Shown: positions 1 to 33,318, numbered from the stretch's first letter. The stretch is DNA of 64,000 nucleotides from Aureliella helgolandensis (GCF_007752135.1 NZ_CP036298.1:5516859-5580858); one strand, 5' to 3'. The notes: generated by a model from the letters alone, not told the origin. A program made the numbers and translations.

Positions 1-267
1 CCTCCTTTCCAATGAAGAGTAAACTTGGATGCGATCTATCGATTAGGTAATCCGGCACATCTTCCCATCGCAAGCCTTTGACTGATGCAATCGCTTCTAT
101 AGCTTCCGGTATTTCTGTTTCCAAAGAAATTTCATTCAAATTCTTTGTAATTTCAGAAGGGCAGTAGTTACTGTGAAGGCGATCATAAATAAATGCGATT
201 AGTTGAAGATATGTCTGCAGTTCGGTCTCGAATGAATGAGAATTGCTGTCGTCGGGTTCAAGCATTT
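1..267 (-). CDS. Partial hypothetical protein (runs off the window edge). It lies immediately downstream of RHS toxin cassette 1, so it is a candidate cognate immunity protein.
   Basis: Open minus-strand frame from ATG at 267 to the window edge (MLEPDDSNSHSFETELQTYLQLIAFIYDRL...), positioned as in toxin-immunity pairs. Confidence 0.3.
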
Positions 268-404
268 GGATGAGCCTTCGCGCAGGCGGTACATTTTCGA
301 GAACCTTTTTGCGCGTCAAATTCCTGATCTTTATGGGTTTGCCAGGAGGAATGAGATCGATTGAAGCATTTATTGGAAAAACTCCTTCGTCGATTTACGC
401 ACGT

Positions 405-1262
405 CTACGAAATTGCAGACGGTGCGAGCATTTGCTCCGGTGTTAGACTCCAGTCACATCGACCGCTTCTCCCCCGCAGCTTGCAACTCCTTGGTTGGTC
501 ACAGACTGCATGTACTAGTGCACTCTGACCAAGTTTGTAGGCATCCGAGCACTTTGGCTTGGGGCAACGTCGTTTTTTGGGAATCCTTGGTGGCTTGAAC
601 CATGGAGCCACTGCAACAGCGACTCTGCGTCCGAGAATCAAACCACACCCACCGCAAGCGCCAGAGCAAGCCCATTTGTGCCATCGTGGCATCAGTTGCC
701 ATGTCAGCTTCCAGCAATCAGCGTCCGTACCACAGTAGTAAACTGCAGGCCCTAAGCAAGCTGCACAGCCACCGCATGTCCCAACCGCCCAGGCCAAGAG
801 ACCAAGAGGATCACTATTGGTTGCGGGGTTAGCGTTCCCGTATTCATAGTATAGATCTTCTTCGAGATAGTACCCGATAGGATCTTTGGAGCAAGTGACC
901 AATCGAGCGCTACCAGCATAGACTGATTTGCGTAAGTCGCTGCAATATGTTGAGTTAGCTCGCAGAGATGGTTGGCCAGTGTAACTACGATCCTGCCCAC
1001 GCGCGTAAGGCGAGGTTTTGAAGTGGGTTTCAGTGCTGTGAGCGAAGGCGACCATGCCTGCTATTGTAAGGCTTCGCCATGACCGCTCGCTATAGTTCAA
1101 CTGACGGATTCTTCGGAACTCCAGAGCCGCTTGCTGAGGCGAGGTTTTCGCAACCATGCGTTCCAGCGAACTTAGCATCCAGCCGCCGCGGCCCTCAATC
1201 CGGCGATCATCCATGCTCGCCGTCTCGCTCCGCGTTTCCTTGATCTTTCTTAGGAGCATCAT
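405..1262 (-). CDS. Orphan RHS/YD-repeat C-terminal toxin cassette 1: RHS core end followed by a Cys-rich variable tip.
   Basis: Protein contains ...CSKDPIGYYLEEDLYYEYGNANPATNSDPLGL, matching the RHS core terminus (DPIGxxGGxNLYAYxxNPxxxxDPxGL), then a Cys-rich C-terminal domain. The N-terminal MVAFAHSTE...YARGQDR segment is shared with cassette 2. Confidence 0.6.
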   Translation of the reverse strand: MMLLRKIKETRSETASMDDRRIEGRGGWMLSSLERMVAKTSPQQAALEFRRIRQLNYSERSWRSLTIAGMVAFAHSTETHFKTSPYARGQDRSYTGQPSLRANSTYCSDLRKSVYAGSARLVTCSKDPIGYYLEEDLYYEYGNANPATNSDPLGLLAWAVGTCGGCAACLGPAVYYCGTDADCWKLTWQLMPRWHKWACSGACGGCGLILGRRVAVAVAPWFKPPRIPKKRRCPKPKCSDAYKLGQSALVHAVCDQPRSCKLRGRSGRCDWSLTPEQMLAPSAIS

Positions 1263-1405
1263 GACCAGAATGCAATCGACACTCTCCCTCTCGCATCACT
1301 CCGCTAACATCAGCGCACGCGCGGCAGGTGTGGCGGATTCAATTTGCTAAATCATCAACTCGCCTGCCTGCCTTGCCTAAAAGGCATCTTTAATTGTATT
1401 CGACA

Positions 1406-1801
1406 TCAACCAGTGCCTAAGTCACGTTCTTTTTGATCAAGCAGGCTTAACGCAAACTCTGCATGTTGCCGAACTTCCAAATTTTCGCACTTGCGGTGAC
1501 GCTCTATTACTTGCGCCGCAGGTCCACAGAGTTTGTGGTATGGCGTGCTGGAAGTCTGGCAAATAACATGCGCGAGTGAAGTCGTAGCTCGCGCTATTGC
1601 AAACGTCTCAAAAATTCCCGCGTTCGCTGAAATCTGAGGAGATTGTTGGAGAAATTTTATCAATGCTAATGCAACATCTCCTCGTGGATCTATACACGAA
1701 CCGGCGAACGTTGTAGCCCAACACCTGTCCCGAGCGTCAGGTGATACTAACTTTCTTAAAACATCTTTGATTTGATTCGCGGACATATTCACACCTTGCA
1801 A
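1406..1801 (-). CDS. Hypothetical protein, candidate immunity protein for RHS cassette 2 (start abuts the toxin stop).
   Basis: ATG at 1801 lies directly after the cassette-2 stop (1802), the usual toxin-immunity coupling. No recognisable domain. Confidence 0.45.
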   Translation of the reverse strand: MQGVNMSANQIKDVLRKLVSPDARDRCWATTFAGSCIDPRGDVALALIKFLQQSPQISANAGIFETFAIARATTSLAHVICQTSSTPYHKLCGPAAQVIERHRKCENLEVRQHAEFALSLLDQKERDLGTG

Positions 1802-2680
1802 TCAGGGCGGTGGAAATCTTTCGTCTGGCATTGGCGGTTTACCAGGAGGTTGATTCGGTGGGACGCAAGCAGAGAATGGAAAGTCCGCCCAGCACTCTGC
1901 AGGATCCTTGCACTCGCAACTTGTATCGATAATCGACCCTATGTTTTGCTGATTCCCTGTCTGAATTTCGCAGCACAAACATTGACCACCTGGGCATGTG
2001 GGCCATTTAGGACGTGGAGTTGGCGGGGCAATATCGATTGGGATTACATCGATATCCACTCTGGGCAAAGTGGACGCAATTACGGCTACGCCAATTACCG
2101 TAGCCGCAGTACATGCCTTTATGGCTCCACCTGGTCCCGGCAACGATGGATTACATGCAAAAGTTGTCGCAGTTACCCCGAGACACGGCGAGCATCGTGA
2201 AGATCTCGTTGTTGTTGTTCGATAAACTTGGTATCCAACAAATCCATCGATTCCCATTTCCAAACAAGTCGAAAGTGGATTATTACCACCGGTAAGTGGA
2301 GCGCGAATCCTGCGTCTTGACGTGCCCCACCACCAACCTGGCATATCGAACTGACATGTGACGCTATACGTAACCGATGTTGAACTTTCTGTAAGACAAC
2401 TTCCACTAAGCATTGTGGAGGACAGGCCCGATGGATCGCCGTATGTCATCGGGCGTCCGCCAACTAAAACGTAGAGCCCCAAGAAACCGCCTTCGAACCG
2501 GATCGGATCTTTGGAGCAAGACTCCAATCGAACGTTCCGGCCAGGGCTCGAACGGCGCAAGAGGGGACGTGTGCTCGACTTGGAACGCCGCGAAGCACAG
2601 ATGGTGCGCGTACGATCCTGCCCGCGCGCGCGAGGTGCGGTTCTGACAGAGAATTCAGCGGTTGGAGCGAAGGCGACCAT
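1802..2680 (-). CDS. Orphan RHS C-terminal toxin cassette 2 (RHS core end plus Cys/Pro-rich variable tip).
   Basis: CSKDPIRFEGGFLGLYVLVGGRPMTYGDPSGL motif, then a divergent Cys-rich tail. Begins with MVAFAPTAEF...RARGQDR like cassette 1. Confidence 0.6.
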   Translation of the reverse strand: MVAFAPTAEFSVRTAPRARGQDRTRTICASRRSKSSTRPLLRRSSPGRNVRLESCSKDPIRFEGGFLGLYVLVGGRPMTYGDPSGLSSTMLSGSCLTESSTSVTYSVTCQFDMPGWWWGTSRRRIRAPLTGGNNPLSTCLEMGIDGFVGYQVYRTTTTRSSRCSPCLGVTATTFACNPSLPGPGGAIKACTAATVIGVAVIASTLPRVDIDVIPIDIAPPTPRPKWPTCPGGQCLCCEIQTGNQQNIGSIIDTSCECKDPAECWADFPFSACVPPNQPPGKPPMPDERFPPP

Positions 2681-2788
2681 GCCACCAATTGTAAATGATC
2701 AGCGTAGTCGCAACTGAGCCAGCGCGCGGTCGTGTAGAGTCCGCCAACTCCTGAAAACAGGGTTTGCCCCAACGAAGTCCGCATTTTT

Positions 2789-3163
2789 TTAGGTTTCTTC
2801 GTGCTCCAGACCTGTTCGTACAAGATCATCGACCGGTATAGCCGCAGCGTCGATTTCGCCAACGGCTAGGTCCGCACCAGGTGGGACGAACTCTATCCAA
2901 TATTCGTTTGGTTCCTGGTTGCTCAAATTACTGGGCCAATTCGAGACAACACCCGATTTCCCTCGCAGCTCTACCAGGAAATGCGAACTCGAAACTGTTA
3001 CTCGATCACCATATCTCAACATGCTCTTTACCACATTCGCCCCGGACTTCCTGTGGGAGGTAACGGAATGGAAGGGCGTTCGGGTTCCGGCGTTACGGGT
3101 ACGACCGGAGCGGGGACCGCACCACAACCACCAAAACGACGATAGGGTCCGAAACATACGCAT
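2789..3163 (-). CDS. Hypothetical small protein, candidate immunity gene for cassette 3. The true start is probably the internal Met near 3022.
   Basis: ORF just downstream of the cassette-3 tail. The N-terminal part overlaps another frame; the internal start MLRYGDRVTV... is more plausible. Confidence 0.3.
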   Translation of the reverse strand: MRMFRTLSSFWWLWCGPRSGRTRNAGTRTPFHSVTSHRKSGANVVKSMLRYGDRVTVSSSHFLVELRGKSGVVSNWPSNLSNQEPNEYWIEFVPPGADLAVGEIDAAAIPVDDLVRTGLEHEET

Positions 3164-3184
3164 GTCGCTGGGTTCTGATTATAA

Positions 3185-3640
3185 TCATAATAGTGCCAAT
3201 GAGTCATGCTTCCCGTCCTGGCCAAGCAACCACCATGATCGTGGGTAGTATCGGTCACGGGGGGGCGGCGGAGTCGGGCAAGGAGGACAATTACTTGGCG
3301 GTTGATCCGAATCCCACATCCAATAGCACACTTTCGTGAGCACGGGCTTGGTACATTTCTGCCCAATTTGGTGGAAGACATAAGTGCAGACCAATATCGC
3401 AGCTACCTGTGGTGGCTTCGGACCTGCTCCGACACCAGGAGGAGGTCTGACAGGAATTCGCTCTAGCAAGCCGTCGGGATCCAAGCTTACCAAAGGGCGG
3501 TTAGTAACGTATGCAAAGAGATTCCAAGCCCCCCCTTCATACCCGATAGGATCCTTGGAGCGGAGTGCGACATCCTGCCTTAACAGCCTTTATCGGCATC
3601 CTGCCTCGGTTCGCAGGGTTGTTTCTCTGAAGCGAACTCC
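3185..3640 (-). CDS. Orphan RHS C-terminal toxin cassette 3 with no start codon (silent, recombination-substrate cassette).
   Basis: In-frame translation gives ...RSKDPIGYEGGAWNLFAYVTNRPLVSLDPDGLLERIP..., a textbook RHS core terminus. The frame is closed by TAA about 30 codons upstream of the motif, and the only Met is MVSL at 3493, inside the DPxGL motif. Confidence 0.5.
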
Positions 3641-3888
3641 GTACGCCCTGAACGGTTTCGACCTTGCCACCGAATTAGCAGGTTTGCACCGTTACCCGCG
3701 AGAGTACCGATGATGAGTCCTATGCCCGTAAATGTCAGCACAGTCCAGTGAAAACTCATCCCTTGGTTCTGATCCGCCTCCATAACGTAGCTCTCGAATG
3801 GGAGAGCGAGACGCGTGGAAATCAACCCGGTAAGGGCCCCGCTAACTATTCCAACAGCTACGATCGACTTTTGATTGATTAGAGCCAT
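3580..3888 (-). CDS. Small two-transmembrane-helix protein, candidate immunity protein for cassette 4.
   Basis: Hydrophobic helices (IVAVGIVSGALTGLISTRLAL; LTFTGIGLIIGTLAG); located directly downstream of the toxin stop at 3934. Confidence 0.4.
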   Translation of the reverse strand: MALINQKSIVAVGIVSGALTGLISTRLALPFESYVMEADQNQGMSFHWTVLTFTGIGLIIGTLAGNGANLLIRWQGRNRSGRTEFASEKQPCEPRQDADKGC

Positions 3889-3933
3889 ACATGTCTTTCC
3901 ACATTCAACCGAGAGACCAAGCCAGACCGACCG

Positions 3934-4557
3934 CTATCTCGTTCCAACGTAGACGTGGCAACTGCTAAACAGACCGTTCCACCACCAAGTCGAGCCGTGA
4001 TCGTAAAACAGATCTTCATACATATCATTATCTTGTTCCGGAGTTTGCGGATACGTCTCTGTGACATTTCCTGCAAACATCAAACTGCTGACAGTTTGGC
4101 ACTTGATTTTCTTTGGTTTGACCCACACACCTAAGCAGGCCGCAATTTCTGTGCAGAGATCGACTCCCCCGCCACTTCCATCGCCACTGCTACAAGATCC
4201 TTGATTAGCGGGGCCGGCTACTTCGCAGCAGTAGTAACCGCCGCAAGGCTTATCGACACAAATCTTCGAATGGTCACCAGGACTCGAACCGCCAAGCCAA
4301 TAGCTGCCTGTTCCCTCTGGATCAATTCTTTTCGATGGCTGGCTTCGCTCGAACTCATAAAGATTTTCACCATCCGCATACCCAATCGGATCCCTGGAGC
4401 AGAATCTCACTAAATTGGCGTCGTAAAGTCCAGCTCTGCAATAGTACAGCTTCGGCGTGTCGTCCCATTCGCGGTCTGTGTAAGTGTAACGATTACTGTG
4501 CGAAGAGCTACTGCGAGGGTGCCCTATGCATCGGTACTCCACAAGCGATGTAGGCAT
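3934..4557 (-). CDS. Orphan RHS C-terminal toxin cassette 4 (last YD repeat, core end, then Cys/Gly-rich tip).
   Basis: YYCRAGLYDANLVRFCSRDPIGYADGENLYEFERSQPSKRIDPEGT matches the RHS terminus RYYDPxxGRFxSxDPIG...DPxG. The variable tail follows. Confidence 0.6.
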   Translation of the reverse strand: MPTSLVEYRCIGHPRSSSSHSNRYTYTDREWDDTPKLYYCRAGLYDANLVRFCSRDPIGYADGENLYEFERSQPSKRIDPEGTGSYWLGGSSPGDHSKICVDKPCGGYYCCEVAGPANQGSCSSGDGSGGGVDLCTEIAACLGVWVKPKKIKCQTVSSLMFAGNVTETYPQTPEQDNDMYEDLFYDHGSTWWWNGLFSSCHVYVGTR

Positions 4558-4729
4558 TATGCGCTACAGTACTTGCCGCTGAACTGGTCAGTGCCGTTAC
4601 ACTGTATTGTTGATTTCAGTGGCAGCAGACACCCACACTCCCCGTCGGTCGATATTGATCTCGTAAGACTGGCTCGTTGGAAAGCGGCAAGCACCCCATT
4701 CACCGAACTCGCGAGCTACGACACCATTC

Positions 4730-5782
4730 CTACCGCCCCCAGAACCTACGCTGATTGGCCCTCCAGCGTTCAACGTCGATGTACGGCTTGCGCTGTGGAT
4801 CGGGAGCCGGTTTTGGCTTGACCGGTACCTTGCGGCGTTCTTCTTCAACCAGCCGGACTCCGCAGTAGTGCCCAGCAGCACAGGCATTGTACAGTGCATC
4901 GAACCAGTGGTTTTGCTTCCGCTTGCGGTCCCACTTGGTCACCATGCCCTTGCCTGAGATGAACTCCTCGGTCTTGACTTCAGCGGTCAGGTGCTTGGCG
5001 AAGGACAGGTGTTCCGTTGCACTGGCTTGGAAGAGTGTAATGGCTCCCACTCGGCTCGTGGGCGTGCTGAGACGTTGGTGTACCCAGGTCTTCCAGTGAT
5101 CCGCATCGACCTCCGCTAGGTAGACATTTGCATTGGGCAGCCAGTTGATATGGAAGCCTTCCCCCAGGTGCTGAACGACAGAGCCAGTTTGCGTCTCACG
5201 ATTCTGCCACTGCTGATGTTGCTGCGAGGCGCCACGCCCCACCGAGGGAATAAAGCGATTGCCCGACTCTCGATTGAATGCATACACCACGTCGGTCATG
5301 TAGCCAGCGTCGATGAAGCATAACTGGGGTATTAGTGTCTCACCTCCCACGACGCCAATGGGCCAGCCTGCGAGCACCATGGCTCGGAACTGTCGTAGGG
5401 CTACCATCGTTGCCTGCTCAACGCCCAGGTCGTCCGAGGCCACTTCAATGCGTCCGTAGTCCACAACGTGTCCATAGGGGCCTGCCGACCACGCTACCAC
5501 AACCCAATGATTGAGGTACTTGCCCAGATCCATCGCGATGGTGAGCGTGACCGTCAACCAACTTCGCATTAAGTATGCGGACGTATTTGGTGAGGGGACC
5601 AACGGTCGGAACAAAGTCTGGTTGCTCAAACGGATTGCTTGGCGAATGCAGGCCAACGAGGAAGGTGATCTTTCCGAACGGGCTCGTAAACGGGCCATTG
5701 AAATTGCGAACGATGCAGACCTACGGATGCTGCCGCCACGACGACCCAAGCTATCGGCCGACTCCTCCGAGCGGACCGTCAC
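4730..5782 (-). pseudogene. Phage terminase large subunit (GpA-like) C-terminal fragment. The N-terminal ATPase region is absent.
   Basis: C-terminus ...KWDRKRKQNHWFDALYNACAAGHYCGVRL resembles the GpA terminase nuclease tail (NHxLDxxVYAxAAA). Only about 350 aa are present, and the 5' end overlaps the DUF2924 gene. Confidence 0.45.
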
Positions 5783-6002
5783 GAAGAAAATCGGGATTGC
5801 TCAATCCAACGAGCTTCTTCCCGGTACCAAACTTCAGCGGGTCTACAAGGGAGAAACGTTCTCGGTCACGGTGCTGGAAAGTGGATTTGAGTTCCAAGGT
5901 GAACGCTTCAAATCACTGACTGCGGTTGCCAAGGCTGTCACCGGGAAGCACTGGAACGGCTTTCACTTCTTCGGCCTGCGTCAACCAAGGAGTGCCAAAT
6001 GA
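5511..6002 (+). CDS. DUF2924-family protein, the usual partner of large serine recombinases in integrative elements.
   Basis: Motifs RIAWRMQA, LSERARKRAIEIAN and GxxLxRxYKGETxxVTVLESGFEFxGERFKSLTAVAKAVTGxHWNGFxFFGL typify DUF2924. The stop overlaps the recombinase start. Confidence 0.6.
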   Translation: MRYLPRSIAMVSVTVNQLRIKYADVFGEGTNGRNKVWLLKRIAWRMQANEEGDLSERARKRAIEIANDADLRMLPPRRPKLSADSSERTVTKKIGIAQSNELLPGTKLQRVYKGETFSVTVLESGFEFQGERFKSLTAVAKAVTGKHWNGFHFFGLRQPRSAK

Positions 6003-7558
6003 GCGGTCGAACAAAAGAGAAGCCGCCTGCTAGAGACGTCGTGCGGTGTGCAATTTACACACGCAAGTCGACGGAGGAGGGACTTGAGCAGGAGTTCAAT
6101 TCCCTCGATGCCCAGCGCGAGGCAGGGGAAGCGTACATCAAGAGCCAGCAGCATGAGGGCTGGGTGTGCGTGCCGGATGCGTACGATGACGGTGGATTCA
6201 CCGGCGCCAATATGGAACGTCCAGCTCTGCGACGACTGCTCTGCAACATCGAAGAGGGGAAGGTAGACTGCGTCGTCGTTTACAAGGTCGATCGACTGTC
6301 TCGCAACCTGATGGACTTCGGACGCATCATCGAAATACTCGACAGGCACAATGTGGCGTTCGTATCGGTAACTCAATCATTTAACACTTCGACATCGATG
6401 GGGCGACTGATCCTGAACGTGCTCCTGTCCTTCGCCCAGTTCGAACGGGAAATGATTAGCGAGCGCACCAGGGATAAAATTGCAGCCGCGCGACGCAAGG
6501 GCAAATGGTCTGGAGGCATGCCTGTCCTGGGCTACGATGTGGTCAATACAAAACTGGTGGTAGACGAATGCGAAGCAGGGCGGGTGCGAGAGATCTTTCG
6601 GCTGTACCTCGATCAACAATCCCTGTTGGACGTTGCCAAGGAAATCAACGCGCGGGGCTGGCGCACCAAGCGTTGGGTCACCAAGAAGTCCGAGGTGCGC
6701 GGTGGAAAGCTCTTCGACAAGGGTTCGCTGCATCGACTGCTAACCAACGTTGTCTACATCGGCAAGCTCACTTATAAGACTGAAGTCCATGAGGGCGAGC
6801 ATGAAGCCATCGTGGACCTTGATGCGTTCAACCAGGCTCAGGCGCTGCTTGAGCGGAATGGGAGAAGTGGTGGGCGAGAAGTCCGGAACAAGCACAATGC
6901 TCTATTGCGGGGCTTGATGCACTGCGGGGCCTGCGACTGCGGCATGAGCCATTCGTATTCCAAGAAGGGTAGCAAGCTCTACAGATACTACGTCTGCCAC
7001 AGGGCGCAAAAGCGGGGCTGGGAGGAGTGCCCTGCGCCATCACTCCCGGCGGGGGAGATTGAGCGATTCGTAATTGACCAGATTAAACGCATTGGCCGAG
7101 ATCCGGCCCTGATTCGCACCACGTTGGCGCAGGTGCAACGACAATCGGACGAGGAACTCCAACGCCTAGCGGCTGAGAAAACGGCACTGGGCCGCGATGT
7201 GCGGCAAGACTACGTCGAGGTTGGCAGATTGGCGGGTACCGCAATGGCTGGCGATCCAAGACTGTTGGAGGTTCAAACTCGAATCCGGGATGCTGAACGT
7301 CGGATGACCGTCATCGGAGAAGAGCTGGCATCGCTGAAATCGCAGGTGATTGATGAAAAGGACGTAGTAGCCTCCCTGGGGGAATTCGACAGCACCTGGG
7401 AAGCACTCGCACCACGGGAACAGGCCCGCGTACTGGAGTTGCTCATTGAACGAGTTACCTACGATGCCGACACCAGCACGCTGTCGATCACTTATCGACC
7501 AACCGGTATCAAGTCGCTGGCCAAGAAGGGTATTGATCGAATTGAGGAAGCAGCATGA
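5999..7558 (+). CDS. Large serine recombinase (resolvase/invertase N-domain, recombinase domain, zinc ribbon).
   Basis: N-terminal CAIYTRKSTEEG...SLDAQRE...VVVYKVDRLSRNLMDF catalytic-serine motif; central recombinase domain; Cys cluster CGACDCG...C...C. Confidence 0.9.
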   Translation: MSGRTKEKPPARDVVRCAIYTRKSTEEGLEQEFNSLDAQREAGEAYIKSQQHEGWVCVPDAYDDGGFTGANMERPALRRLLCNIEEGKVDCVVVYKVDRLSRNLMDFGRIIEILDRHNVAFVSVTQSFNTSTSMGRLILNVLLSFAQFEREMISERTRDKIAAARRKGKWSGGMPVLGYDVVNTKLVVDECEAGRVREIFRLYLDQQSLLDVAKEINARGWRTKRWVTKKSEVRGGKLFDKGSLHRLLTNVVYIGKLTYKTEVHEGEHEAIVDLDAFNQAQALLERNGRSGGREVRNKHNALLRGLMHCGACDCGMSHSYSKKGSKLYRYYVCHRAQKRGWEECPAPSLPAGEIERFVIDQIKRIGRDPALIRTTLAQVQRQSDEELQRLAAEKTALGRDVRQDYVEVGRLAGTAMAGDPRLLEVQTRIRDAERRMTVIGEELASLKSQVIDEKDVVASLGEFDSTWEALAPREQARVLELLIERVTYDADTSTLSITYRPTGIKSLAKKGIDRIEEAA

Positions 7559-7941
7559 TTCAGACTCAACACAAGATTCATTTCAAATCGGGAAGGCGCT
7601 CGCGTAAGGAACTGTCGGATGGGGTCGCCGTAGCTCAGCCAAAGGGTCGGCTGCCTCGCATTACCAAGTTGATGGCTCTGGCGATTCGTCTTGACCATCT
7701 CATCAAGACTGGGCAAGTAACCGATCAAGCAGAGCTGGCACGCGTGGGGCATGTATCGCGGGCGCGGCTCACTCAAATTATGAATCTGCTCTATCTGGCG
7801 CCGGACATCCAAGAGGAGCTACTGCACCTGCCAGTCACGGTGAACGGACAAGATGCAATGATTGAACGGGACCTGAGGGCGATTGCGGGGATGGCGAGTT
7901 GGAAGAAGCAGCGGTTAAAGTGGAAACGGATTCACTCGTAG
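7555..7941 (+). CDS. Small hypothetical HTH-like protein translationally coupled to the recombinase. It has a paralogue at 12401-12778.
   Basis: ATGA overlap with the recombinase stop. Shares ITKLxALAIxxDHLIxxGxVxxQAELARxGxVSRxRLxQIxNLLxLAPxIQ with ORF 12401-12778. Confidence 0.5.
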   Translation: MIQTQHKIHFKSGRRSRKELSDGVAVAQPKGRLPRITKLMALAIRLDHLIKTGQVTDQAELARVGHVSRARLTQIMNLLYLAPDIQEELLHLPVTVNGQDAMIERDLRAIAGMASWKKQRLKWKRIHS

Positions 7942-8139
7942 CAAAGTTTCAAGTTCCACTTGTGGATCTGCAGACTTACCGACTGTCGATCGGTGACCTC
8001 ATTTAGGCTATTTTTGGTGGGAGTTACAGCAGGCTTCCTACAACTATGATGAAGAGATGCAAACTGAACGGCAATCGGATTGCGGTTTTGCGTCTCGCTG
8101 GGGCCCACGGAGGTCGAGTTGCTAGGCCAAGGAGCAACG

Positions 8140-9057
8140 CTAGGTCAATCTTGCTGAAGGATCGCCAGGCTCGTTCTCTGGTAATGCCCCCGCTTCGACT
8201 ATCTCCTGTAGCTGCTCCAGAACGTCAGGATAGCCCTTCGATAAAAAACGGACAATTCTCGCGTTGTCGAGGAGCTTACGAAGGTAGCCTGTAATAATCA
8301 CCAAGTGAAGAACATTTTTGCCATGGGATCCCTCGATTGCCTTCAGCTCGCGAACTAGTACCCGAGACTCCTGCTCGATTCGGGCTAAATCGTCATTTGA
8401 CATAATCTCCGGTCCACTGTCTCGGACCGCATCAATTTGCAATTCAGCTGGAGTTGCAAAGACAAGGCATTTCATGTACCCAATCGAATAGTTGTGTGAG
8501 GCTGTCATTAGTTGGGCAATTTCTATTTGCCTGATCGGACGGACCTTTCGTAATTCTCTGATCGCTACTGCAGATGTGCGCTTACCGCGCAGTATATGAA
8601 TAGCTTCTTTACAGATGCCGTCGAGCAGGTCCCGCTTCTGACGGATTGAAGCAGGGTCAACATTGAGCGCCCTCGCGATTCGCTCCTCCGAGACGCCGTT
8701 CTTAATCGCCTTTAGTATCATGAAGTGCTCTTGGATCGCCGTTAGGCGATTAATTTTATGATTGAAAGTGAAGCCTTCGTCGTCGGTGGCTATGAGACAC
8801 TTGGCCTCTTTCGCCCCTAAATCAGAAAGAATCGCGTGCCGTATGTGCCCGTCCAATATCATGAACTGGCCCTCTAGCTGAGCCTGTGGGAAAACCACGA
8901 GTGGCTCAATAAGCCCAAGTTCCCTTATGGAAGCTTCAATACAGGAATACTTTGGTGTTTTGAGTAAGCCGGCCGACAAGATGCGGACTGGCAATAGGCT
9001 CGCAAGCGGCACGATGACGACTTCTGATTTACAAGCCAATTGGACTTTTTGATTCAT
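8140..9057 (-). CDS. ParB/Srx-fold (ParB N-terminal domain) protein with HTH, copy 2 of a tandem pair.
   Basis: VVIVPLASLLP...ELGLIEPLVV...FMILDGHIRHAI matches the ParB N-terminal nuclease/CTPase-like domain. HTH-like segment VSEERIARALNVDPASIRQ. Start overlaps the upstream ParB-like stop (ATGA). Confidence 0.7.
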   Translation of the reverse strand: MNQKVQLACKSEVVIVPLASLLPVRILSAGLLKTPKYSCIEASIRELGLIEPLVVFPQAQLEGQFMILDGHIRHAILSDLGAKEAKCLIATDDEGFTFNHKINRLTAIQEHFMILKAIKNGVSEERIARALNVDPASIRQKRDLLDGICKEAIHILRGKRTSAVAIRELRKVRPIRQIEIAQLMTASHNYSIGYMKCLVFATPAELQIDAVRDSGPEIMSNDDLARIEQESRVLVRELKAIEGSHGKNVLHLVIITGYLRKLLDNARIVRFLSKGYPDVLEQLQEIVEAGALPENEPGDPSARLT

Positions 9058-9950
9058 TTGTCTGTTCCGTCCTGACGAATGCGCTCGGCAAGCAACTGCG
9101 GCATTGAATCGAGTTGCTCCGCTTTCAAGAGCGTTTGGAACTGATCGTCCTTGTATAATTCGGTGAATGCTGAGATCGCCATTAGCAGTCGACTTTCGCA
9201 GGCCTTCGTCTTGCGGATCAGCATTTTTTGCCTGAGAGTTTCATCCTGATAGGTCTGCACCAACGACTTGCTTGTCACTCCATCTGCCGGTGTCTTTCTC
9301 ACCGACGATCTTGGGCGTTTCCCGCCATTTTGGCGCTGTTCAATGATGCGCTTAGCGCGCACAAGCGCGTCGCCCCGCAGTACGTTATTTTCATATGCTT
9401 CCTGGAGTGCAATCTGGACCCCCTTGTCGTCCGACGTTGCGATCACCACCGCGACACTCACAGCCAGAACCCCCTTTTCGATCGCAAGCAACAGACGCTC
9501 TTCTCCTTTCTCCAGGAGTTTCAGGAGTCCACGAATGTAGGTGACGTCAAGATCAGTCTTTTTCGCTATTTCACCCGCCGTGTATCCCCGTTCCTTGAGC
9601 ACACCGAGTTCGCGCACTAGTTCCACACCGGAATGTTTTCGTCGTGCCAAATTTTCAGCAAGACTCATCAGCATTAAATCTTCTTTTGCCCCTTCAGCAA
9701 TAATGCATGGAATTTCCTGCTGTTCGAGAGCGATATAAGCCTCGAGCCTACCCTGGCCGCAAACAAGGTTGTAAGCGAACGCATCATTCTTGATTCCTGC
9801 GGCGACTACCGTTACCGGCTTCTTTAATCCGATGGCTGCTATGTTAGATTTGATCTGGTCGAACTTCTTTCGGCCTCGCTCGCGTGGGTTCAGAACCGAG
9901 ATTTGTGCCACTGGAATCATTACAATATCGCTTCGAAACGTAACTGCCAA
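9054..9950 (-). CDS. ParB/Spo0J-like protein (ParB N-domain plus HTH), copy 1 of a tandem pair.
   Basis: IPVAQISVLNPRERGRKKFDQIKSNIAAIGLKKPVTV...GQGRLEAYIAL ParB box motifs; HTH YTAGEIAKKTDLDVTYIRGLL. No ParA-type ATPase is present nearby. Confidence 0.7.
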   Translation of the reverse strand: MAVTFRSDIVMIPVAQISVLNPRERGRKKFDQIKSNIAAIGLKKPVTVVAAGIKNDAFAYNLVCGQGRLEAYIALEQQEIPCIIAEGAKEDLMLMSLAENLARRKHSGVELVRELGVLKERGYTAGEIAKKTDLDVTYIRGLLKLLEKGEERLLLAIEKGVLAVSVAVVIATSDDKGVQIALQEAYENNVLRGDALVRAKRIIEQRQNGGKRPRSSVRKTPADGVTSKSLVQTYQDETLRQKMLIRKTKACESRLLMAISAFTELYKDDQFQTLLKAEQLDSMPQLLAERIRQDGTDK

Positions 9951-9951
9951 C

Positions 9952-11502
9952 TTACACCTCTACTTTCTCTCTGGCCGATGCGGACGCCAAGAATTCAAGA
10001 CTGTCGAACTGATACGTGTCCAGGTGGACACCATTTACTTCACAAAGCAGAAGCTTTGGCGAGTCGATATCGATGATTGGGAGCAGATAGTAATCGGCAG
10101 GCGCAGTATTCTCGATATTCATGCGGACCAGAATAGTGATATCAGGCGTTACGCCTTGATTCAGTTTTATCAACCACCGGAGGGATCCTGCCTGGGTCTG
10201 TCGGCATCGAGAGAGTACCATTGATGCGCTGTACTCTCCATTGATCAACAGAAGATCGCTCGTGGAATCTTGCGTTACAGTCGCGCCCGCGGCACCGAGC
10301 TTTGAGGTGACATCTGAGACAAGTTGTGGGTACATCTGCCGAAGATCACGATTGATTTCTACATACCGATAGTCACGGTCTGGTTGGAGACCGATCTGCT
10401 TATACGCCGCTAGTAGGCTTCCGAATCTAGATCGATAAACGCTGCTGGATGGCATCGAGTGGCACGCGTCGATGAGTTGCCCAGAGAGCCGCGAGTTCTG
10501 ATCGGCCAACTTACTTAGTTTCGCAATCAACTCGTCGTTGGTTATCTTTCGAGCTCGTTCTTGAATGATTCCTCGAGCAACAAAGAACTCTTCGAGGGAA
10601 ACCACCGGTTCGAATGCTTGCTCGTGACGAACCCACATTTCCGGAGCGTTCTCGACTCGCTTCTTCTTCAGTTTGAAGGAAGTGCGGTTGTAGACATTGT
10701 TTCCAACGTACTTTTCGTTGGTGAGCACTTGATTGACGGTTCCCCGATTCCAGGAACGTCCGAGATCGGTTGAAATGCCCTTTTCATTTAACTCGTTTGC
10801 GATCTCGGCTTCCCGCTTTCCTTCCACAGTGAACGCGGTATAAATCCAGCGAACTGTCTCAACCTCCTCGTCGGGTCCCGGAACCAAGATCACTCTGTCA
10901 GTCTGCAGGCTTTTCCGCTCACCGCGTGCCAGCGGCCCTTTCTCGACGCCAGCCTGACTGATCAGCATGCGCCGTAGACCGAAGCCTGCCGGTCCGCCTT
11001 GCCGGTATCCAAGTTCGATTAGTCGGCACTGGCCTTTGAAAACCTTGGTCGAAAGCTCACGAGAGTACTCTCCAGCCATGGCTCGCTTCACACTTTTGAT
11101 GATTGTCGATGTGGGACCACCGTCATTCTCAAATGGCTCGGCACAGTAATGGACTTCTATCCCGGCACGTTTGCACAGATATTCGTAGTAGGCGCTTTCA
11201 TCTGCGTCTTGGAACCTCCCCCAGCGGCTAATGTCGTAAACCAGAATTGCTGAGAAGTCAGCTTTCCCGCACTGCACGTCGTCGATTAGCTGTTGGAGCG
11301 AGGCGCGCCCAGCCACATTAAGTCCACTTTTTCCCTCGTCCGCATAGGTCTTTACTATTTCGAATCCGCGGCGTCGGGCGAAATCCAAAATCGTATCGTC
11401 CTGATTGGCCGTAGAATATTGCTGGTGTTCGGTTGACATTCGCACGTATTGTGCAGCCCGAGTAAGGGTTTGAGGATGCTCATCAAGAGTTCGCAAATTC
11501 AC
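9952..11502 (-). CDS. Large serine recombinase (second copy, divergent from 5999-7558).
   Basis: AAQYVRMSTEHQ...ILVYDISRWGRF catalytic region, recombinase domain and C-terminal extension. Sits directly upstream of the two ParB-like genes in the same orientation (2-nt gap). Confidence 0.9.
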   Translation of the reverse strand: MNLRTLDEHPQTLTRAAQYVRMSTEHQQYSTANQDDTILDFARRRGFEIVKTYADEGKSGLNVAGRASLQQLIDDVQCGKADFSAILVYDISRWGRFQDADESAYYEYLCKRAGIEVHYCAEPFENDGGPTSTIIKSVKRAMAGEYSRELSTKVFKGQCRLIELGYRQGGPAGFGLRRMLISQAGVEKGPLARGERKSLQTDRVILVPGPDEEVETVRWIYTAFTVEGKREAEIANELNEKGISTDLGRSWNRGTVNQVLTNEKYVGNNVYNRTSFKLKKKRVENAPEMWVRHEQAFEPVVSLEEFFVARGIIQERARKITNDELIAKLSKLADQNSRLSGQLIDACHSMPSSSVYRSRFGSLLAAYKQIGLQPDRDYRYVEINRDLRQMYPQLVSDVTSKLGAAGATVTQDSTSDLLLINGEYSASMVLSRCRQTQAGSLRWLIKLNQGVTPDITILVRMNIENTAPADYYLLPIIDIDSPKLLLCEVNGVHLDTYQFDSLEFLASASAREKVEV

Positions 11503-11624
11503 AATTGAGCCTCGTCATTAACAAAGTCGCCGAACATTTATACGCAGAACAAATGACAATTCTGACTGCTAACTGTGGCAAAATGCGGTAGGTTACTGTG
11601 TTATTTCTGTGGGAAGTTCGATGT

Positions 11625-12806: not shown

Positions 12807-13067
12807 ATGCCCCACTACCATCGAGCTATCGAAATTCAACAGCGACTTGAAGCTGTTCTTGAATTGGTTGCGGCTGGACAATACTCCACGCCACAAATTG
12901 CCGATGAAGTAGATGTGTCGACGGCAACGATTTCACGTTGTATCGACGCTTTGAGAAAACAAGGACACCGCATCGAGTCCGTCAAGATCGACGGTCAATG
13001 GTGTTATCGGCTGCAAGGAAGTGGTCAAAAGGGTTCGTCCAATCTCGCAAAGGCAGGGAAGTCATGA
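12807..13067 (+). CDS. Small HTH transcriptional regulator, first gene of a three-gene operon.
   Basis: ATG at 12807 preceded by GGAAAAAG. HTH-like segment YSTPQIADEVDVSTATISRCIDALRKQGHRI. Stop overlaps the ATPase start (ATGA at 13064). Confidence 0.55.
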   Translation: MPHYHRAIEIQQRLEAVLELVAAGQYSTPQIADEVDVSTATISRCIDALRKQGHRIESVKIDGQWCYRLQGSGQKGSSNLAKAGKS

Positions 13068-14056
13068 ATGCGGAACTACTCAAACGAATCATGCGAGCCA
13101 TCGCCAATGGTTCACAAGACGACCTCGAACAGCTTGCGGCGCGAGTCATTGATCGCGAACGTCAAAGCGGACACAGTCGGCTGGCAAATCAGCTCGAAGG
13201 CATTATGAGCAAGCCGCGTCCCCAGGTCGGTCGACCGGAAGGTGGCGGTAGTTCTGATCGAAATCTGTCCCAGCTACCTGTTAGTCGCCGGCACCAAGAG
13301 TTGCTCGCGACCTTGTTGCCACGTGAAGAACTCGAGCACCACATGGTGTTGCCGCCGGAGATCGAGAAACGCTTCGCTCGTGTCGAACAAGAATTTGCCG
13401 CCCGCGAACGCCTCGGAGCTTACGGTCTGAAAAACCGTAAGACGATTCTGCTTTACGGTCCTCCCGGATGCGGAAAATCTCTCGGAGCTAAACGTTTGGC
13501 ATGGAACACTGGCCTTCCACTACTAAAAGTCCGTTTCGACGCGCTCTTGTCGTCCTATTTCGGTGAGTCTGCCAGCAATCTGCGTGCAGTGTTCGACTCT
13601 GCCAAAGCACAGCCTTGCGTTTTGCTTCTCGACGAGTGTGACTTTATCGCGAAGTCAAGATCGAACACGCACGACATTGGCGAGGCATCACGTATCGTCA
13701 ATTCCCTGCTGCAATTGATGGAAGAATACGACGCGCCAGGACTACTGGTTGCCACAACCAACCTTGAAAACTCGCTCGACGACGCCTTGTTCCGTCGTTT
13801 CGACGATGTGTTTCAGATTCCGCCTCCAGGTGAAGATGAGATCAGTGAACTTCTTCGTACTACGCTTTCAGCCGTCAAGTGCGATGATAAACTTGCTTGG
13901 AAGAAAGCGATCAAGGAACTCGTCGGATCGTCCGCCGCTATGGTGGTGAAATCAGCCCGAGACGCAGCCAAAGCAGCCGTCCTGGGAGGCAAGAAGATTG
14001 TTGACACCCAGATCTTGCTCGCTGCCATCGACGAGAACAAACGAATCAACGAGTAG
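13064..14056 (+). CDS. AAA+ ATPase (IetA-like candidate).
   Basis: Walker A LLYGPPGCGKS, Walker B VLLLDECDF, sensor/arginine-finger region ATTNLENSLDDALFRRFD. About 130 aa N-terminal region of unknown function. Confidence 0.85.
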   Translation: MNAELLKRIMRAIANGSQDDLEQLAARVIDRERQSGHSRLANQLEGIMSKPRPQVGRPEGGGSSDRNLSQLPVSRRHQELLATLLPREELEHHMVLPPEIEKRFARVEQEFAARERLGAYGLKNRKTILLYGPPGCGKSLGAKRLAWNTGLPLLKVRFDALLSSYFGESASNLRAVFDSAKAQPCVLLLDECDFIAKSRSNTHDIGEASRIVNSLLQLMEEYDAPGLLVATTNLENSLDDALFRRFDDVFQIPPPGEDEISELLRTTLSAVKCDDKLAWKKAIKELVGSSAAMVVKSARDAAKAAVLGGKKIVDTQILLAAIDENKRINE

Positions 14057-14073
14057 CGTTTACAGGTCCACGA

Positions 14074-16689
14074 ATGCCGCCACCACCGTCGGAAAAGCCC
14101 TTTGACCATTTGCCGTTGGTACTGACCGGATCGGGTGACTCTCGCCCGCGAAAGCCGGTGGTGATGGATCCGAACCCGATAACCGAAGGTAACAAGGCAA
14201 ACCGAAGCGGACACGCTTCGAGCTTGCGGACGTCGTCGTTGGCTGTCGCCGAGCGTTGGAACGAAAGTCAAGCCGAGCGGGTCGCGGCAGGACTGCCGTC
14301 ACCCGAACCCGGCATCCCACTCTTATTGCAGATTGACACAGCGTTCGACCTGGACATTCTTCGACGACAGTTCAGTTTTGAAATTGTCTCCGAACACGAT
14401 GACGGCTTCGTCATTGTCGTCTCCAAAGATTTAGATCTGAGCCTGATCCAACAGAAGTTCGATGAATTCGAGCAAGAGGTGTACGGATCGGGTAGCATCG
14501 CCCAGATTCATGAACTCGTCAACGATGAGACACAGGAAGAACGACTTCGACGCATTCTTACCGATCAGTTGCTCAGCGAGTGGCCAACGCTCGCGGATGA
14601 CGCTGAGTACGTTGTTGATGTCAGTATCGCCTGCACCGGTGATTGGCAGATTCGCAATCGGCTCAAGCGAAATCCGCGATGGAAGCCAGAAACATGGGCA
14701 AGAAAAGAAAACGACTGGTCAAACGATCGCTTAGCCGCATACGAGCGATGGGATGCACTCAAAGATTCGCGGCTAGACGATGTCGAGGCGATGCTCGCAC
14801 CGTACAACGTTCAAGTTCTCAACAATTGGGACAATTCCGATGCGAAGTCTGTCCAACTGCCTGATAGCTTTACGCTAAGAATCCGAACCAGCGGTAAAGG
14901 ACTCCGCGACTTCGTCCTCAACTACGCTTACGTTTGGGAAGTCACTGAACCGGATGAAATTGAGACACCTCAGCAAGCAGCACGCAACCTTGCTGACCTG
15001 TCGGCCGGCCTTACCTTCAATGCTCCATCGACCAATGCCCCCGTTGTTTGCATCATTGACAGCGGCATCCAAGAATCCCACCTGTATCTTGAGCCCGCCA
15101 TTCGCGATTTCGAATCAAAGTGCTTTCTCGAAGGTGCTACGCCAACTGATGTGACTGACTGCGTCAAACCGAGCGGACACGGCACGCGCGTCGCTGGCGT
15201 CGTTCTGTACGGCGAGAATGTCCCAAAGTTCGGCATCGTCGACTTAGACTGCTGGATTCAAAATGCTCGCGTACTTGATGCACACTGCAAGATGCCGCTC
15301 ACGATGCTGCCGGCTGCGGTAATCCGTGATGTCGTCTCGCATTTCAATCGCGGCAAAAATCCAACGCGAATCTTTAATCACTCGATCAACTCGGCCGTCG
15401 CTTCACGCACACTGCATATGTCGTCGTGGGCAGCGGAGATTGACCAGCTATGCCACGATCGTGACATTTTGGTGCTCCAAAGCGTTGGCAACATTCGTCA
15501 GTCCAATCCCATACCCAACCCAGGCGTCGCCGAACAACTGGCCGCTGGCAAGTCCTATCCCGACTATTTGTCCGAGCCCGCATCACGCATTGCGAATCCA
15601 GCGCAGAGCCTGCAAGCGTTGACAGTCGGATCGGTTGCCTACGATACCGTCAACGCGGGCGGATGGCAGAGCCTTGCCAAACAGGGCGGTGAACCCTCCG
15701 CGTTCAGCCGCAGCGGCCATGGCATTTGGGACACCATCAAACCAGAGGTCGTCGAGTATGGCGGCGACTATATGATCGACGGTTCAACACCGCCAAGCGT
15801 AACCTATCCTGCCGCATGTGCGTCGGCGTATCCGATTCTGATCGGGTCAACGCTCCACGGCGAACCTGCAGTCACCCAAGACGATGTTGGCACCTCCTAC
15901 TCCACGCCAAAGGTCGCCCGGATCGCGGCTCGTTTGGCGGCTGTGATGCCAACGAATTCGTGCTTGCTCTATCGCGCCCTGATCATCCAATCGGCACAGT
16001 GGCCGGCGTGGGCCGAATCCCTCCCCATGCACGAGCAGATCAACATACTACGTCGTTTGGGATACGGGATTCCCAACATGTCGCGTGCGACCGAAAACAC
16101 CCAGTATCGTGCAACATTCACCACGTCGAGCGACCAAGTTCTCGGCACCAAGCAATGCCACGTGTTTCAAATCCCGATTCCAGCAGAACTACGAACGCCC
16201 GGTGGTGAGTACGACATCCGAATTGATGTGACGCTTTCGTACTCGGCCACTCCACGTCGAACCCGTCGATCGCCCCGCGGCTACCTAGCGGTTTGGCTCG
16301 ATTGGATTGCCAGCCAGTGCGGCGAATCCGCCGGCTCATTTTTGAATCGAGCACTGGCAACCGAAGATGATCCAGTCGGCGACCGCAATGGTGAACTGCC
16401 GTGGACACTGCACCCCATGACGCAACATGGACTATCCGGCGTGCGACGCAACCGAGGGACCGTTCAAAAAGACTGGGCCATCGTCAAATCGAATGCCCTG
16501 CCAGAAGATCTCAGCATCGCCGTTCGTGGACACCAAGGCTGGAGTCATGATCCCGACGAGACGGCATCCTACGCAATCGCTGTAACTTTCGAGATCGTCG
16601 GCCAAGAGATTCCGATCTATGAGCCGCTCCGTACTGCGGTCCTGGACCTACAGTTTGTTGTCGAAGTAGAGGTGGAAGCAGAAGTTTAA
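14074..16689 (+). CDS. Subtilisin-like serine peptidase (S8 family) with long N- and C-terminal extensions (IetS-like candidate).
   Basis: Catalytic triad motifs VVCIIDSGI (Asp), SGHGTRVAGV (His) and GTSYSTPKVA (Ser). 871 aa. 17-nt gap after the ATPase. Confidence 0.85.
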   Translation: MPPPPSEKPFDHLPLVLTGSGDSRPRKPVVMDPNPITEGNKANRSGHASSLRTSSLAVAERWNESQAERVAAGLPSPEPGIPLLLQIDTAFDLDILRRQFSFEIVSEHDDGFVIVVSKDLDLSLIQQKFDEFEQEVYGSGSIAQIHELVNDETQEERLRRILTDQLLSEWPTLADDAEYVVDVSIACTGDWQIRNRLKRNPRWKPETWARKENDWSNDRLAAYERWDALKDSRLDDVEAMLAPYNVQVLNNWDNSDAKSVQLPDSFTLRIRTSGKGLRDFVLNYAYVWEVTEPDEIETPQQAARNLADLSAGLTFNAPSTNAPVVCIIDSGIQESHLYLEPAIRDFESKCFLEGATPTDVTDCVKPSGHGTRVAGVVLYGENVPKFGIVDLDCWIQNARVLDAHCKMPLTMLPAAVIRDVVSHFNRGKNPTRIFNHSINSAVASRTLHMSSWAAEIDQLCHDRDILVLQSVGNIRQSNPIPNPGVAEQLAAGKSYPDYLSEPASRIANPAQSLQALTVGSVAYDTVNAGGWQSLAKQGGEPSAFSRSGHGIWDTIKPEVVEYGGDYMIDGSTPPSVTYPAACASAYPILIGSTLHGEPAVTQDDVGTSYSTPKVARIAARLAAVMPTNSCLLYRALIIQSAQWPAWAESLPMHEQINILRRLGYGIPNMSRATENTQYRATFTTSSDQVLGTKQCHVFQIPIPAELRTPGGEYDIRIDVTLSYSATPRRTRRSPRGYLAVWLDWIASQCGESAGSFLNRALATEDDPVGDRNGELPWTLHPMTQHGLSGVRRNRGTVQKDWAIVKSNALPEDLSIAVRGHQGWSHDPDETASYAIAVTFEIVGQEIPIYEPLRTAVLDLQFVVEVEVEAEV

Positions 16690-33075: not shown

Positions 33076-33318
33076 GTTGCTTTTAGAACCCGTTCACGGA
33101 ACACAGTACGCCAACTGCCGAAAGGCAGGGCAGTCTGCGCCGCCGGAACAACATCGACCAAATGCTTACTTACAAGCAGGAATGCAGTGGTTCGAACACT
33201 GTCCATCGGTTTTGGAGGCCGAGTCCGCTCCCAGGCGAACATTCCTGTATTGTGAACGGTTCGGCGCTAGCCGCCGGTATCGAAACCGAAGGCTAACGCC
33301 TATTCGCTCAGTCACAAA

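Follow-up and report, generated by a model that had tools for sequence, protein, structure and literature searches.

In full-length Rhs and TcC proteins, the motif (R/K)DPIGY...DPxGL forms an aspartyl self-cleavage site that frees the toxin, and it works inside a YD-repeat shell of about 1000 residues that encloses the toxin. Orphan Rhs cassettes are well known in Proteobacteria, where they are regarded as spare tips that serve a resident, secreted Rhs protein, and to our knowledge the delivery of Rhs proteins in Planctomycetes is not understood. A 64-kb stretch of Aureliella helgolandensis (Pirellulaceae), hereafter the window, to which all absences reported for the locus refer, carries an array of four cassettes with Rhs-type core ends that can be compared with several described systems. 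First, orphan rhs-CT/rhsI modules are known from Enterobacteria, for example from Salmonella Typhimurium LT2 (Koskiniemi et al. 2014, PMC3967940). Next, the rAID-1 clusters of Bacteroidales, named for acquired interbacterial defence associated with a recombinase, are arrays of orphan immunity genes without toxin tips and with skewed GC (Ross et al., bioRxiv 10.1101/471110; PMC12247911). Finally, standalone toxin cassettes occur in polymorphic toxin loci, and RHS-linked toxins are carried by Planctomycetes, among others (Zhang et al. 2012, PMC3482391).

The array occupies window positions 405-4615, with the four cassettes co-oriented in tandem on the minus strand, and reads 5′ to 3′ on that strand as terminase fragment, cassette 4, a 102-amino-acid (aa) open reading frame (ORF), cassette 3, a 124-aa ORF, cassette 2, a 131-aa ORF, cassette 1 and an ORF at the window edge (Table 1). 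With slightly better than even confidence, it is read here as an array of Rhs-derived toxin and immunity cassettes of two kinds that accumulated via mobile-element traffic and recombination, and not as the tail of a resident rhs gene. Each cassette keeps the terminal part of the Rhs core; behind it come an unrelated Cys-rich tip and a small gene, the product of which is most likely the matching immunity protein. Cassette 4 is a decayed 3′ fragment of an rhs gene, and cassettes 1, 2 and the truncated cassette 3 belong to a family in which a 41-residue leader replaces the whole Rhs shell.

The core motif carries the first part of this reading. A regular expression for the double motif DPIGY...DPxGL finds four matches in the six-frame translation of the window, versus none in 200 shuffles. 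Cassettes 1, 3 and 4 have the form (S)(K/R)DPIGY, then 18-19 residues, then DPxG(L/T); the motif of cassette 2 is degenerate (SKDPIRF...GDPSGL, 2423-2509), so that the sequence-only reading, which had credited all four cassettes with the diagnostic core terminus, is right about their presence and too generous about the second. Stretches of 22-38 nucleotides (nt) around the DPIGY codons, at 82-95% identity, are common to all four. The curated cutoff of the 76-position TIGR03696 (Rhs_assc_core) model, 32.5 bits, is passed by cassette 4 alone, with 55 bits over model positions 1-75, and cassettes 3, 2 and 1 remain below it with 25, 15.3 and 13.4 bits over positions 46/47-76 only. After each motif comes a Cys-rich tip and then a small downstream ORF, and the tips are mutually unrelated. 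The unrelated Cys-rich tip claimed for each core end is confirmed, with cysteine contents of 10%, 7.4%, 5.4% and 7.3% in cassettes 1 to 4, and the motifs and the gene order likewise bear out the proposed layout of Rhs-derived C-terminal cassettes in which a toxin tip precedes a small ORF. Neither YD repeats nor a fifth core end occur anywhere in the window. The earlier remark that it holds no full-length rhs gene also stands, no ORF there exceeding 871 aa, and no delivery gene is present in it.

Cassette 4 represents the first kind. Its product is 100% identical to an A. helgolandensis protein annotated as RHS repeat-associated core domain-containing, and a profile made from it together with its relatives matches the solved Tse15, TcdB2-TccC3 and YenC2 at their core ends, at the toxin cleavage position. 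Because Rhs homology extends in another frame beyond the 5′ side of its ATG, the cassette is a decayed, frameshifted 3′ piece of a genuine rhs gene; the piece is about 110 residues long and nearly abuts the terminase stop codon. In tblastn searches, positions 4615-4532 align with residues 44-71 of P0002 (50% identity, E=8e-4) and with residues 61-86 of P0004, in both cases in a frame other than that of the cassette 4 ORF; with the frameshifted part included, about 100 aa of rhs core lie 5′ of DPxGL. Only four proteins among 5.8 billion clustered ones are homologous to the tip; all have 207-291 aa and none is a full-length Rhs. In two loci tip homologues (68% and 45% identity) are followed by homologues of the 102-aa ORF (67% in contig L001 and 36% in L002), and the tip and this transmembrane ORF are kept together in three loci, the window included, behind two different 5′ modules. 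Since they recur together in the two other loci, there is good evidence that they form a predicted cognate toxin-immunity pair. A tip of this type stands behind a true Rhs core in P0002 and behind the MVAFA leader in P0003, and such use of the same tip behind different 5′ modules is the modular shuffling expected of polymorphic toxins. An AlphaFold2 model of cassette 4 from a 3-sequence alignment was too poor to use (predicted local distance difference test score, pLDDT, 34).

The second kind is defined by the leader. A profile of the 87-residue module made from cassettes 1, 2 and P0003 was searched against 1.84 billion cluster representatives (50% identity) and retrieved 545 of them at E<=1e-3 and 108 at E<=1e-10. 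Cassettes 1 (P0125, 157 bits) and 2 (P0126, 152 bits) are part of the profile and hence match by construction, and independent members reach E-values of 1e-30 to 1e-10. The best 150 of the 545 hits are all short (71-548 aa, median 259), the single 548-aa hit matching through the motif only, and among those whose match begins at profile position 1-3 the module starts within residues 1-10 in 91 of 109. The family architecture is an N-terminal MVAxA...RARxQ...CSKS leader (41 aa), the Rhs core end (46 aa) and a variable tip, in ORFs of about 150-400 aa, with the consensus MVAla...e....t.pRARaQ.rr....asrCsKS...a.LR..tY.ec.RLeSCSRDPIGYeGg.wNLYeYV.s.Pl...DPsGl. Cassettes 1 and 2 fit this definition, cassette 3 keeps leader positions ~33-87 only, and cassette 4 is not a member. 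In hhalign comparisons, the homology to the Rhs core end is confined to positions 42-87 (98.4% probability over 44 columns); positions 1-41 show none in local alignment, and a global alignment of them has a confidence near zero. Reading the leader in its entirety as degenerate Rhs core was rejected where positions 1-41 are concerned, as only 42-87 align locally. Because no long or full-length Rhs among the best 150 of the 545 hits carries the 41-residue leader, the leader is not a local fragment of an rhs core. The leader sequence is also found in the Logan contig L002, in several copies in a Pirellulaceae metagenome-assembled genome (MAG; L003, L004) and in the metagenome contigs L005 and L006, and a scan of genome contigs with the leader DNA pattern returned one Pirellulaceae MAG. 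The leader cassettes form a large, apparently undescribed family of short genes, the distribution of which is Pirellulaceae-wide.

The leader looks translated, because synonymous differences exceed nonsynonymous ones between the Aureliella and other copies (pS 0.43-0.60 vs pN 0.18-0.28), one copy has a single-codon deletion that keeps the frame, and the frame opens just 5′ of the ATG, by six codons in cassette 2 and by six or seven in cassette 2 and the MAG copies taken together. The start ATG is conserved family-wide, and across 150 divergent members the motif hardly varies at C, S, D, P, D and G. Decay is also evident, with frameshifts or stops in three of the five full-length leader copies of the MAG loci L003/L004 and also in L007, and with the truncation of cassette 3. 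That the leader DNA is instead a non-coding RNA or regulatory element which is open by chance is extremely improbable. The codons GCG CGT GGG CAG GAT CGT, invariant in seven codon-aligned copies bar one synonymous CGT/CGC change in cassette 2, would suit such an element, but as protein the same block varies in the wider family (RARAQNR, RAHGQER), and elsewhere in the leader there is the excess of synonymous changes and the in-frame indel. With no Rfam match and a consensus fold of only -13 kcal/mol that has no covariation support, the RNA-element reading was discarded.

Within the window, the segment common to cassettes 1 and 2 is real, comprising 84 nt at 77% and 38 nt at 84% identity at a constant spacing of 1625 nt; the DNA homology of the two cassettes amounts to about 200 nt in all and has a sharp start at TTACAAT, which precedes the ATG by seven or eight bases. 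For the product of the segment, MVAFA...YARGQDR, the proposed part of a recombination handle, as a local piece of rhs core, is not supported; short ORFs of a large family carry it as their conserved N-terminus, and positions 1-41 have no Rhs homology. The frame of cassette 1 is open upstream to 1262 (ORF 405-1262), with MVAFA at 1055, and its database gene call, P0125, starts at 1214. A second Aureliella locus, P0127 (Q31a_13840), has the leader and the same composite upstream region as cassette 1 and a different tip. In that upstream region the ATGGTTGC and AAAACCTCGCC blocks (1157-1119) are identical to leader copies, and the stretch may be a remnant of another leader. Cassette 2 is identical to the cluster representative P0126, and the first half of its tip is 40% identical to P0174 (289 aa), its sole match among the 150 family members. 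The frame of cassette 3 opens after a TAA at 3590-3592 and ends at 3185, with no in-frame ATG, GTG or TTG before the motif, the first start codon being a TTG at 3493 inside it. Similarity to leader positions 33-88 reaches window position 3631, through the TAA and into the 3′ end of the preceding ORF. The lack of a start codon noticed by the sequence-only reading is therefore that of a truncated copy of a leader-type cassette, and cassette 3 is a 5′-truncated and presumably dead member of the family. The G7/C7 run reported at 3529-3535 is present and encodes E-G-G within the motif; the tract is in frame on both sides and gives no sign of phase variation.

How far the array agrees with the enterobacterial orphan modules can now be stated. 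Like them (PMC3967940), it consists of co-oriented pairs of a tip and a predicted immunity gene in which a piece of Rhs core ending in DPxGL precedes the tip (about 100 aa in cassette 4 and about 46 aa in cassettes 1-3), its cassettes are far smaller than rhs genes, and one of them, cassette 3, has no start codon, the other three beginning with ATG. Unlike them, it does not lie downstream of a full-length rhs gene within the window, cassettes 1 and 2 (and cassette 3 in truncated form) carry a 41-aa leader that is absent from the listed Rhs hits, cassettes 1 and 2 have a conserved start codon, and the Rhs homology of the leader cassettes covers only about 46 aa. A classical orphan rhs-CT/rhsI array would consist of tips displaced from a full-length rhs gene by successive C-terminal replacement, with the MVAFA segment supplying the homology for recombining back. 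The toxin-then-immunity, co-oriented layout, the start-less cassette 3, the true rhs 3′ fragment in cassette 4 and the short similar stretches around the DPIGY codons of all four cassettes are what it predicts, and the definition of orphans in PMC3967940 describes an array of this sort. Such an origin is nevertheless quite unlikely: there is no rhs gene or YD repeat in 64 kb, a terminase fragment occupies the position 5′ of the array, the leader is found solely at the N-terminus of short ORFs and never on a long Rhs among the best 150 of 545 hits, its first 41 residues have no Rhs homology, and the homologues of the cassette 4 tip are all short. The model fits cassette 4, and a partner gene is lacking for cassettes 1-3; displacement from a main gene likewise suits the true rhs 3′ fragment of cassette 4 and has no demonstrated partner for the others.

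The tips of cassettes 1-4 have no Pfam or NCBIfam match, and those of cassettes 1 and 3 have no homologue among the 150 family members, the comparison of the tips of cassettes 1-3 not extending to a dedicated database search. Among the 150 members, tips with recognisable domains include six phospholipase A2 matches (PLA2G12 three, Phospholip_A2_3 two and Phospholip_A2_1 one; the members may overlap) and one match each to Ntox16, DUF6973, peptidase M76 and Hint, and two members have a Phage_integrase domain fused by read-through. Across the family the median Cys content of the tips is 6%, and it reaches 4% or more in 78% of them. The word toxin is used here on the strength of the Rhs motif, the layout and this minority of recognisable domains. 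Several downstream ORFs in family loci encode membrane proteins, and the Cys-rich tips together with the frequent membrane-protein ORFs suggest a predicted action outside the cytoplasm. As in polymorphic toxin loci (PMC3482391), there are cassette arrays and hypervariable C-terminal domains including Ntox16, phospholipase and Hint, but the constant 5′ gene body with trafficking domains that is expected in that framework has no known counterpart in the leader family.

These features bring in a second alternative, namely that the leader cassettes are autonomous shell-less toxins, short precursors from which the aspartyl motif removes the 41+46-residue leader so that the Cys-rich tip is exported in the manner of a bacteriocin, with a membrane protein conferring immunity. 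Conservation of the start Met and leader in more than 100 clusters, pS above pN in the leader, the nearly invariant motif residues, the intact ORFs of cassettes 1 and 2, the membrane proteins encoded by several downstream ORFs, and the Cys-rich tips and phospholipase A2 domains, which point to extracytoplasmic action, all speak for it, and a conserved TACAAT 7 nt before the ATG would fit a leaderless mRNA. The (R/K)DPIG...DPxGL motif also aligns with the solved core ends of the Rhs/TcC cocoons (TccC3, YenC2, Tse15, RhsA), but unlike these cocoons the leader cassettes have no shell, and we know of no demonstration that Rhs self-cleavage proceeds outside one. The leader has neither a signal peptide nor another known export signal, an AlphaFold2 model of cassette 1 from a 150-sequence alignment shows it as an unstructured coil and is unusable (pLDDT 51), many copies are broken, the codon usage of the tips is not adapted, and no canonical -35 element or ribosome-binding site is present. 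Autonomous toxins are rather unlikely. A scan for sigma-70 promoters and terminators gave no more sites than shuffled sequence.

The small downstream ORFs differ in how well they are tied to their tips. The cognate immunity proposed by the sequence-only reading is upheld for cassette 4 by co-conservation and stays a matter of position for cassettes 1 and 3, and for cassette 2 the homologue of the tip is followed by an unrelated gene. Three of the downstream ORFs, scanned with Pfam, have no significant match, the sole hit being a sub-threshold one of the ORF after cassette 3 to Pfam SSB (E=0.096, 13.2 bits vs a cutoff of 26); this ORF has no significant NCBIfam match either. By a codon-usage score, in bits per codon, the ORF downstream of cassette 4 has 0.146 in frame vs -0.445 and -0.231 off frame, the short form of that of cassette 3 has 0.20 vs -0.27 and -0.37, that of cassette 1 has 0.21 vs -0.24 and -0.38, and that of cassette 2 has -0.03 vs -0.27 and -0.31. 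Codon usage is neither host-like nor frame-specific in the tips of cassettes 1 and 2 and is both in the immunity candidates of cassettes 1, 3 and 4, which weakly suggests that upkeep has been better for the immunity genes than for the toxin parts.

In related loci, leader cassettes keep the company of mobile-element genes, and many of them stand in tandem or are broken. In L005, L006, L007, L009 and twice in L008, the leader begins 22-53 nt past the stop codon of an integrase; that of L005 and L006, both retrieved with the leader DNA pattern alone, is a XerD-like tyrosine recombinase, at distances of 53 and 22 nt. In L008, a unit of Toprim primase, P-loop helicase (PF27228), XerD-like integrase, leader cassette and small ORF is present twice in tandem, and behind it come two PDDEXK_2 genes, another cassette and an IS110 transposase; the arrangement of L009 is similar. 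L007, a 173-kb Pirellulaceae MAG contig, has a C-terminal remnant of the helicase, a C-terminal fragment of the integrase, a frameshifted leader cassette and a membrane ORF, all beside a polyketide synthase/non-ribosomal peptide synthetase cluster. Remnants of the integrase 3′ end, of varying extent, lie upstream of the leader in the MAG copies (L003) and in L002, and P0130 and P0184 are integrase fragments fused to leaders. PDDEXK_2 genes adjoin Rhs-end cassettes in four unrelated contigs (Table 1). The 5′ limits of homology between copies vary, being at about -90, at about -35 or at the repeat described below, and together with the integrase remnants they would fit tandem integration with deletion decay better than precise site-specific exchange.

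An imperfect inverted repeat surrounds TTACAAT directly 5′ of the leader ATG, at 1058-1075 and 2683-2700 in the window and also in L002, L003, L005, L006 and L007; its form in the MAG copies is GCTGAGCC-ATTACAAT-GGTCAGC. Its register differs between lineages, and there is no convincing covariation. The repeat could be the -10 element of a leaderless mRNA, or a tyrosine-recombinase or operator site. L008 further has a conserved segment of about 100 nt after each toxin-immunity pair at the element junctions (5734-5830, 5955-6060 and 11462-11545), which may mark where an element ends or be a small regulatory gene; at the other element junctions of L008, no leader-like site turned up in a search for direct repeats of att type. 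The listed homologues of the C-terminal 90 aa of the XerD-like protein are all short PF00589 fragments (62-158 aa), some of them on long contigs and some in Escherichia coli, Xenorhabdus and Photorhabdus records labelled 'XerD, partial', and both integrase copies of L008 are split by a frameshift. Decay, assembly error or the selection of candidates by the search may lie behind these short and split copies.

The loci also resemble the rAID-1 clusters. Like these, the related Pirellulaceae loci have a XerD-like recombinase, then co-oriented short genes of a toxin system and a repeated junction sequence, and retained immunity genes would probably give a defensive benefit. Unlike them, toxin-immunity pairs are present here, there is no GC skew, the recombinase is absent from the window, and a relationship of the recombinases is evident only for the XerD-like catalytic domain. 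The leader and the imperfect inverted repeat recur 5′ of cassettes 1 and 2 and of cassettes elsewhere, with variable 5′ limits and no covariation. A recombinase-driven cassette system akin to rAID-1 or integrons, in which the XerD-like recombinase inserts cassettes at a site at the leader start and the window array has lost or been separated from its recombinase, would explain the integrase stop codons 22-53 nt before the leader and the fact that homology between cassettes of different contexts often starts at the TTACAAT inverted repeat, and it would match the definition of rAID-1, by which a XerD-like recombinase stands 5′ of short genes of one orientation with conserved repeats between them. 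It is very doubtful, as the 5′ homology limits and the integrase remnants (P0130, P0184, L007) vary, the repeat shifts its register between lineages and shows no convincing covariation, the other element junctions of L008 have no leader-like site, and the window has no tyrosine recombinase. A wider proposal joins these elements to the autonomous toxins considered above: the cassettes would be shell-less, integrase-borne polymorphic toxins of Pirellulaceae, in which the aspartyl motif removes the 41-residue leader and releases disulfide-rich toxins, membrane immunity proteins are encoded alongside, and exchange takes place at a recombinase site overlapping the leader start. This proposal is unlikely.

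The accumulation of two kinds of cassette through mobile-element traffic and recombination remains the favoured reading. The immunity genes would be the parts kept working, protecting against the corresponding toxins, and the toxin parts would be mostly a store that cannot be delivered, with cassette 3 dead, cassette 4 a fragment and cassettes 1 and 2 intact without a recognisable export signal; should cassette 1 or 2 be translated, the motif that it has retained would sever leader and tip. Several observations weigh against it. A start Met that is conserved, purifying selection on the leader and catalytic Asp, Pro and Gly residues that scarcely vary favour expressed proteins over a passive store. 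The immunity assignments of cassettes 1-3 are positional, and co-conservation of the ORF downstream of cassette 2 with the tip homologue P0174 (40% identity) failed, an unrelated gene being found there. In tblastn searches, the integrase (queries from L005, L006 and L008), primase, helicase and PDDEXK_2 genes have no homologue in the window, and because the window is without these genes, a mobile-element origin of its array is drawn from cassette homology only. Finally, the array may extend past the left end of the window.

Table 1. Features of the cassette array, its neighbourhood and related loci. Positions refer to the window unless a contig is named.
Feature	Position	Strand	Description
Immunity candidate of cassette 1	1-330	-	open frame running off the left window end; position only
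Cassette 1	405-1055	-	leader 795-1055, motif 798-884, tip of 129 aa (10% Cys)
Possible leader remnant carrying internal deletions, MVAKTSPQQAALE	1119-1157	-	read from sequence
Immunity candidate of cassette 2	1406-1801	-	126-131 aa, probably all-alpha; start overlaps or abuts the cassette 2 stop; position only
Cassette 2	1802-2680	-	292-aa ORF with MVAFA start; leader 2420-2680, 204-aa Cys-rich tip
Immunity candidate of cassette 3	2789-3163	-	124-aa ORF; a 77-aa form could start at ATG 3022; position only
Cassette 3	3185-3589	-	start-less, 5′-truncated leader type; 92-aa tip
Cassette 3 motif, SKDPIGYEGGAWNLFAYVTNRPLVSLDPDGL	3467-3553	-	
Probable cognate immunity gene of cassette 4	3580-3888	-	102 aa, two hydrophobic segments
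Cassette 4	3934-4557	-	207-aa ORF with ATG start; complete Rhs-associated core, 124-aa Cys-rich tip
Cassette 4 motif, SRDPIGYADGENLYEFERSQPSKRIDPEGT	4309-4392	-	
Cassette 4 core domain	residues 8-82, about 4312-4536	-	TIGR03696, 55 bits
Frameshifted 5′ continuation of the cassette 4 rhs sequence, NQQYSVTALTSSAASTVAHNAYIACGVP	4532-4615	-	tblastn
Terminase large-subunit fragment	4730-about 5500	-	PF20454 GpA endonuclease only, E=1.4e-12, profile 78-290 of 294
DUF2924 gene and large serine recombinase	5511-7558	+	PF11149, E=4e-40; Resolvase, Recombinase and Zn_ribbon_recom domains
Two RepB/ParB-like genes	8140-9950	-	
Second large serine recombinase with HNH-associated repeat	9952-11502	-	
PDDEXK_2 (Rpn/YhgA-like) genes immediately upstream of Rhs-end cassettes	L001 1812-2903; L004 3145-3960; L008 11708-13705; L010 7448-8563		

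The terminase fragment that the sequence-only reading had placed upstream of the array is indeed there and holds the GpA nuclease domain (E=1.4e-12), the N-terminal ATPase half being absent from the window. It appears to be an incidental neighbour and not a part of the system, and its gene appears to have been truncated by the abutting mobile element at 5511-11502, in a region dense with mobile DNA. A phage origin of the array was also considered and rejected for want of evidence: neither a leader cassette, as leader pattern or relative, is found in IMG/VR, nor is the other half of the terminase in the window.

Further along, the window holds several features of separate interest. An AAA ATPase (372 aa) and a subtilase (871 aa) are adjacent at 12938-16689 on the plus strand and possibly form a defence-type pair. 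At 27385-29208 on the minus strand, a 607-aa protein with TROVE and Ro60-type vWA domains resembles bacterial Ro60/Rsr proteins. Thirty-five tRNA genes, all on the minus strand and covering most anticodons, lie at 34451-38043, with two more at 30517-30591 and 33176-33246; the block resembles a 'tRNA array unit', and its surroundings are rich in mobile elements. Two group II introns are present, the first at 55924-57787 with Rfam domains D1-D4 at 57533-57787 (126 bits) and a 560-aa ORF at 55924-57606 for a putative reverse transcriptase, and the second at 41377-42052 with D1-D4 at 41786-42052 and domain V/VI at 41377-41487.

At this locus, the spare-tip logic by which orphan Rhs cassettes are understood has no visible partner. 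If the leader cassettes are expressed, the Rhs cleavage module would be reusable without its cocoon, which would point to a further export route in Planctomycetes, and should the reading of shell-less toxins prove true, Rhs-derived toxins would have a new logic of delivery and processing. Without expression of the cassettes, mobile elements would seed arrays whose lasting value lies in the immunity genes, in parallel to the rAID clusters of gut Bacteroidales. Either way, the leader family offers a handle for cataloguing uncharacterised toxin and immunity domains.

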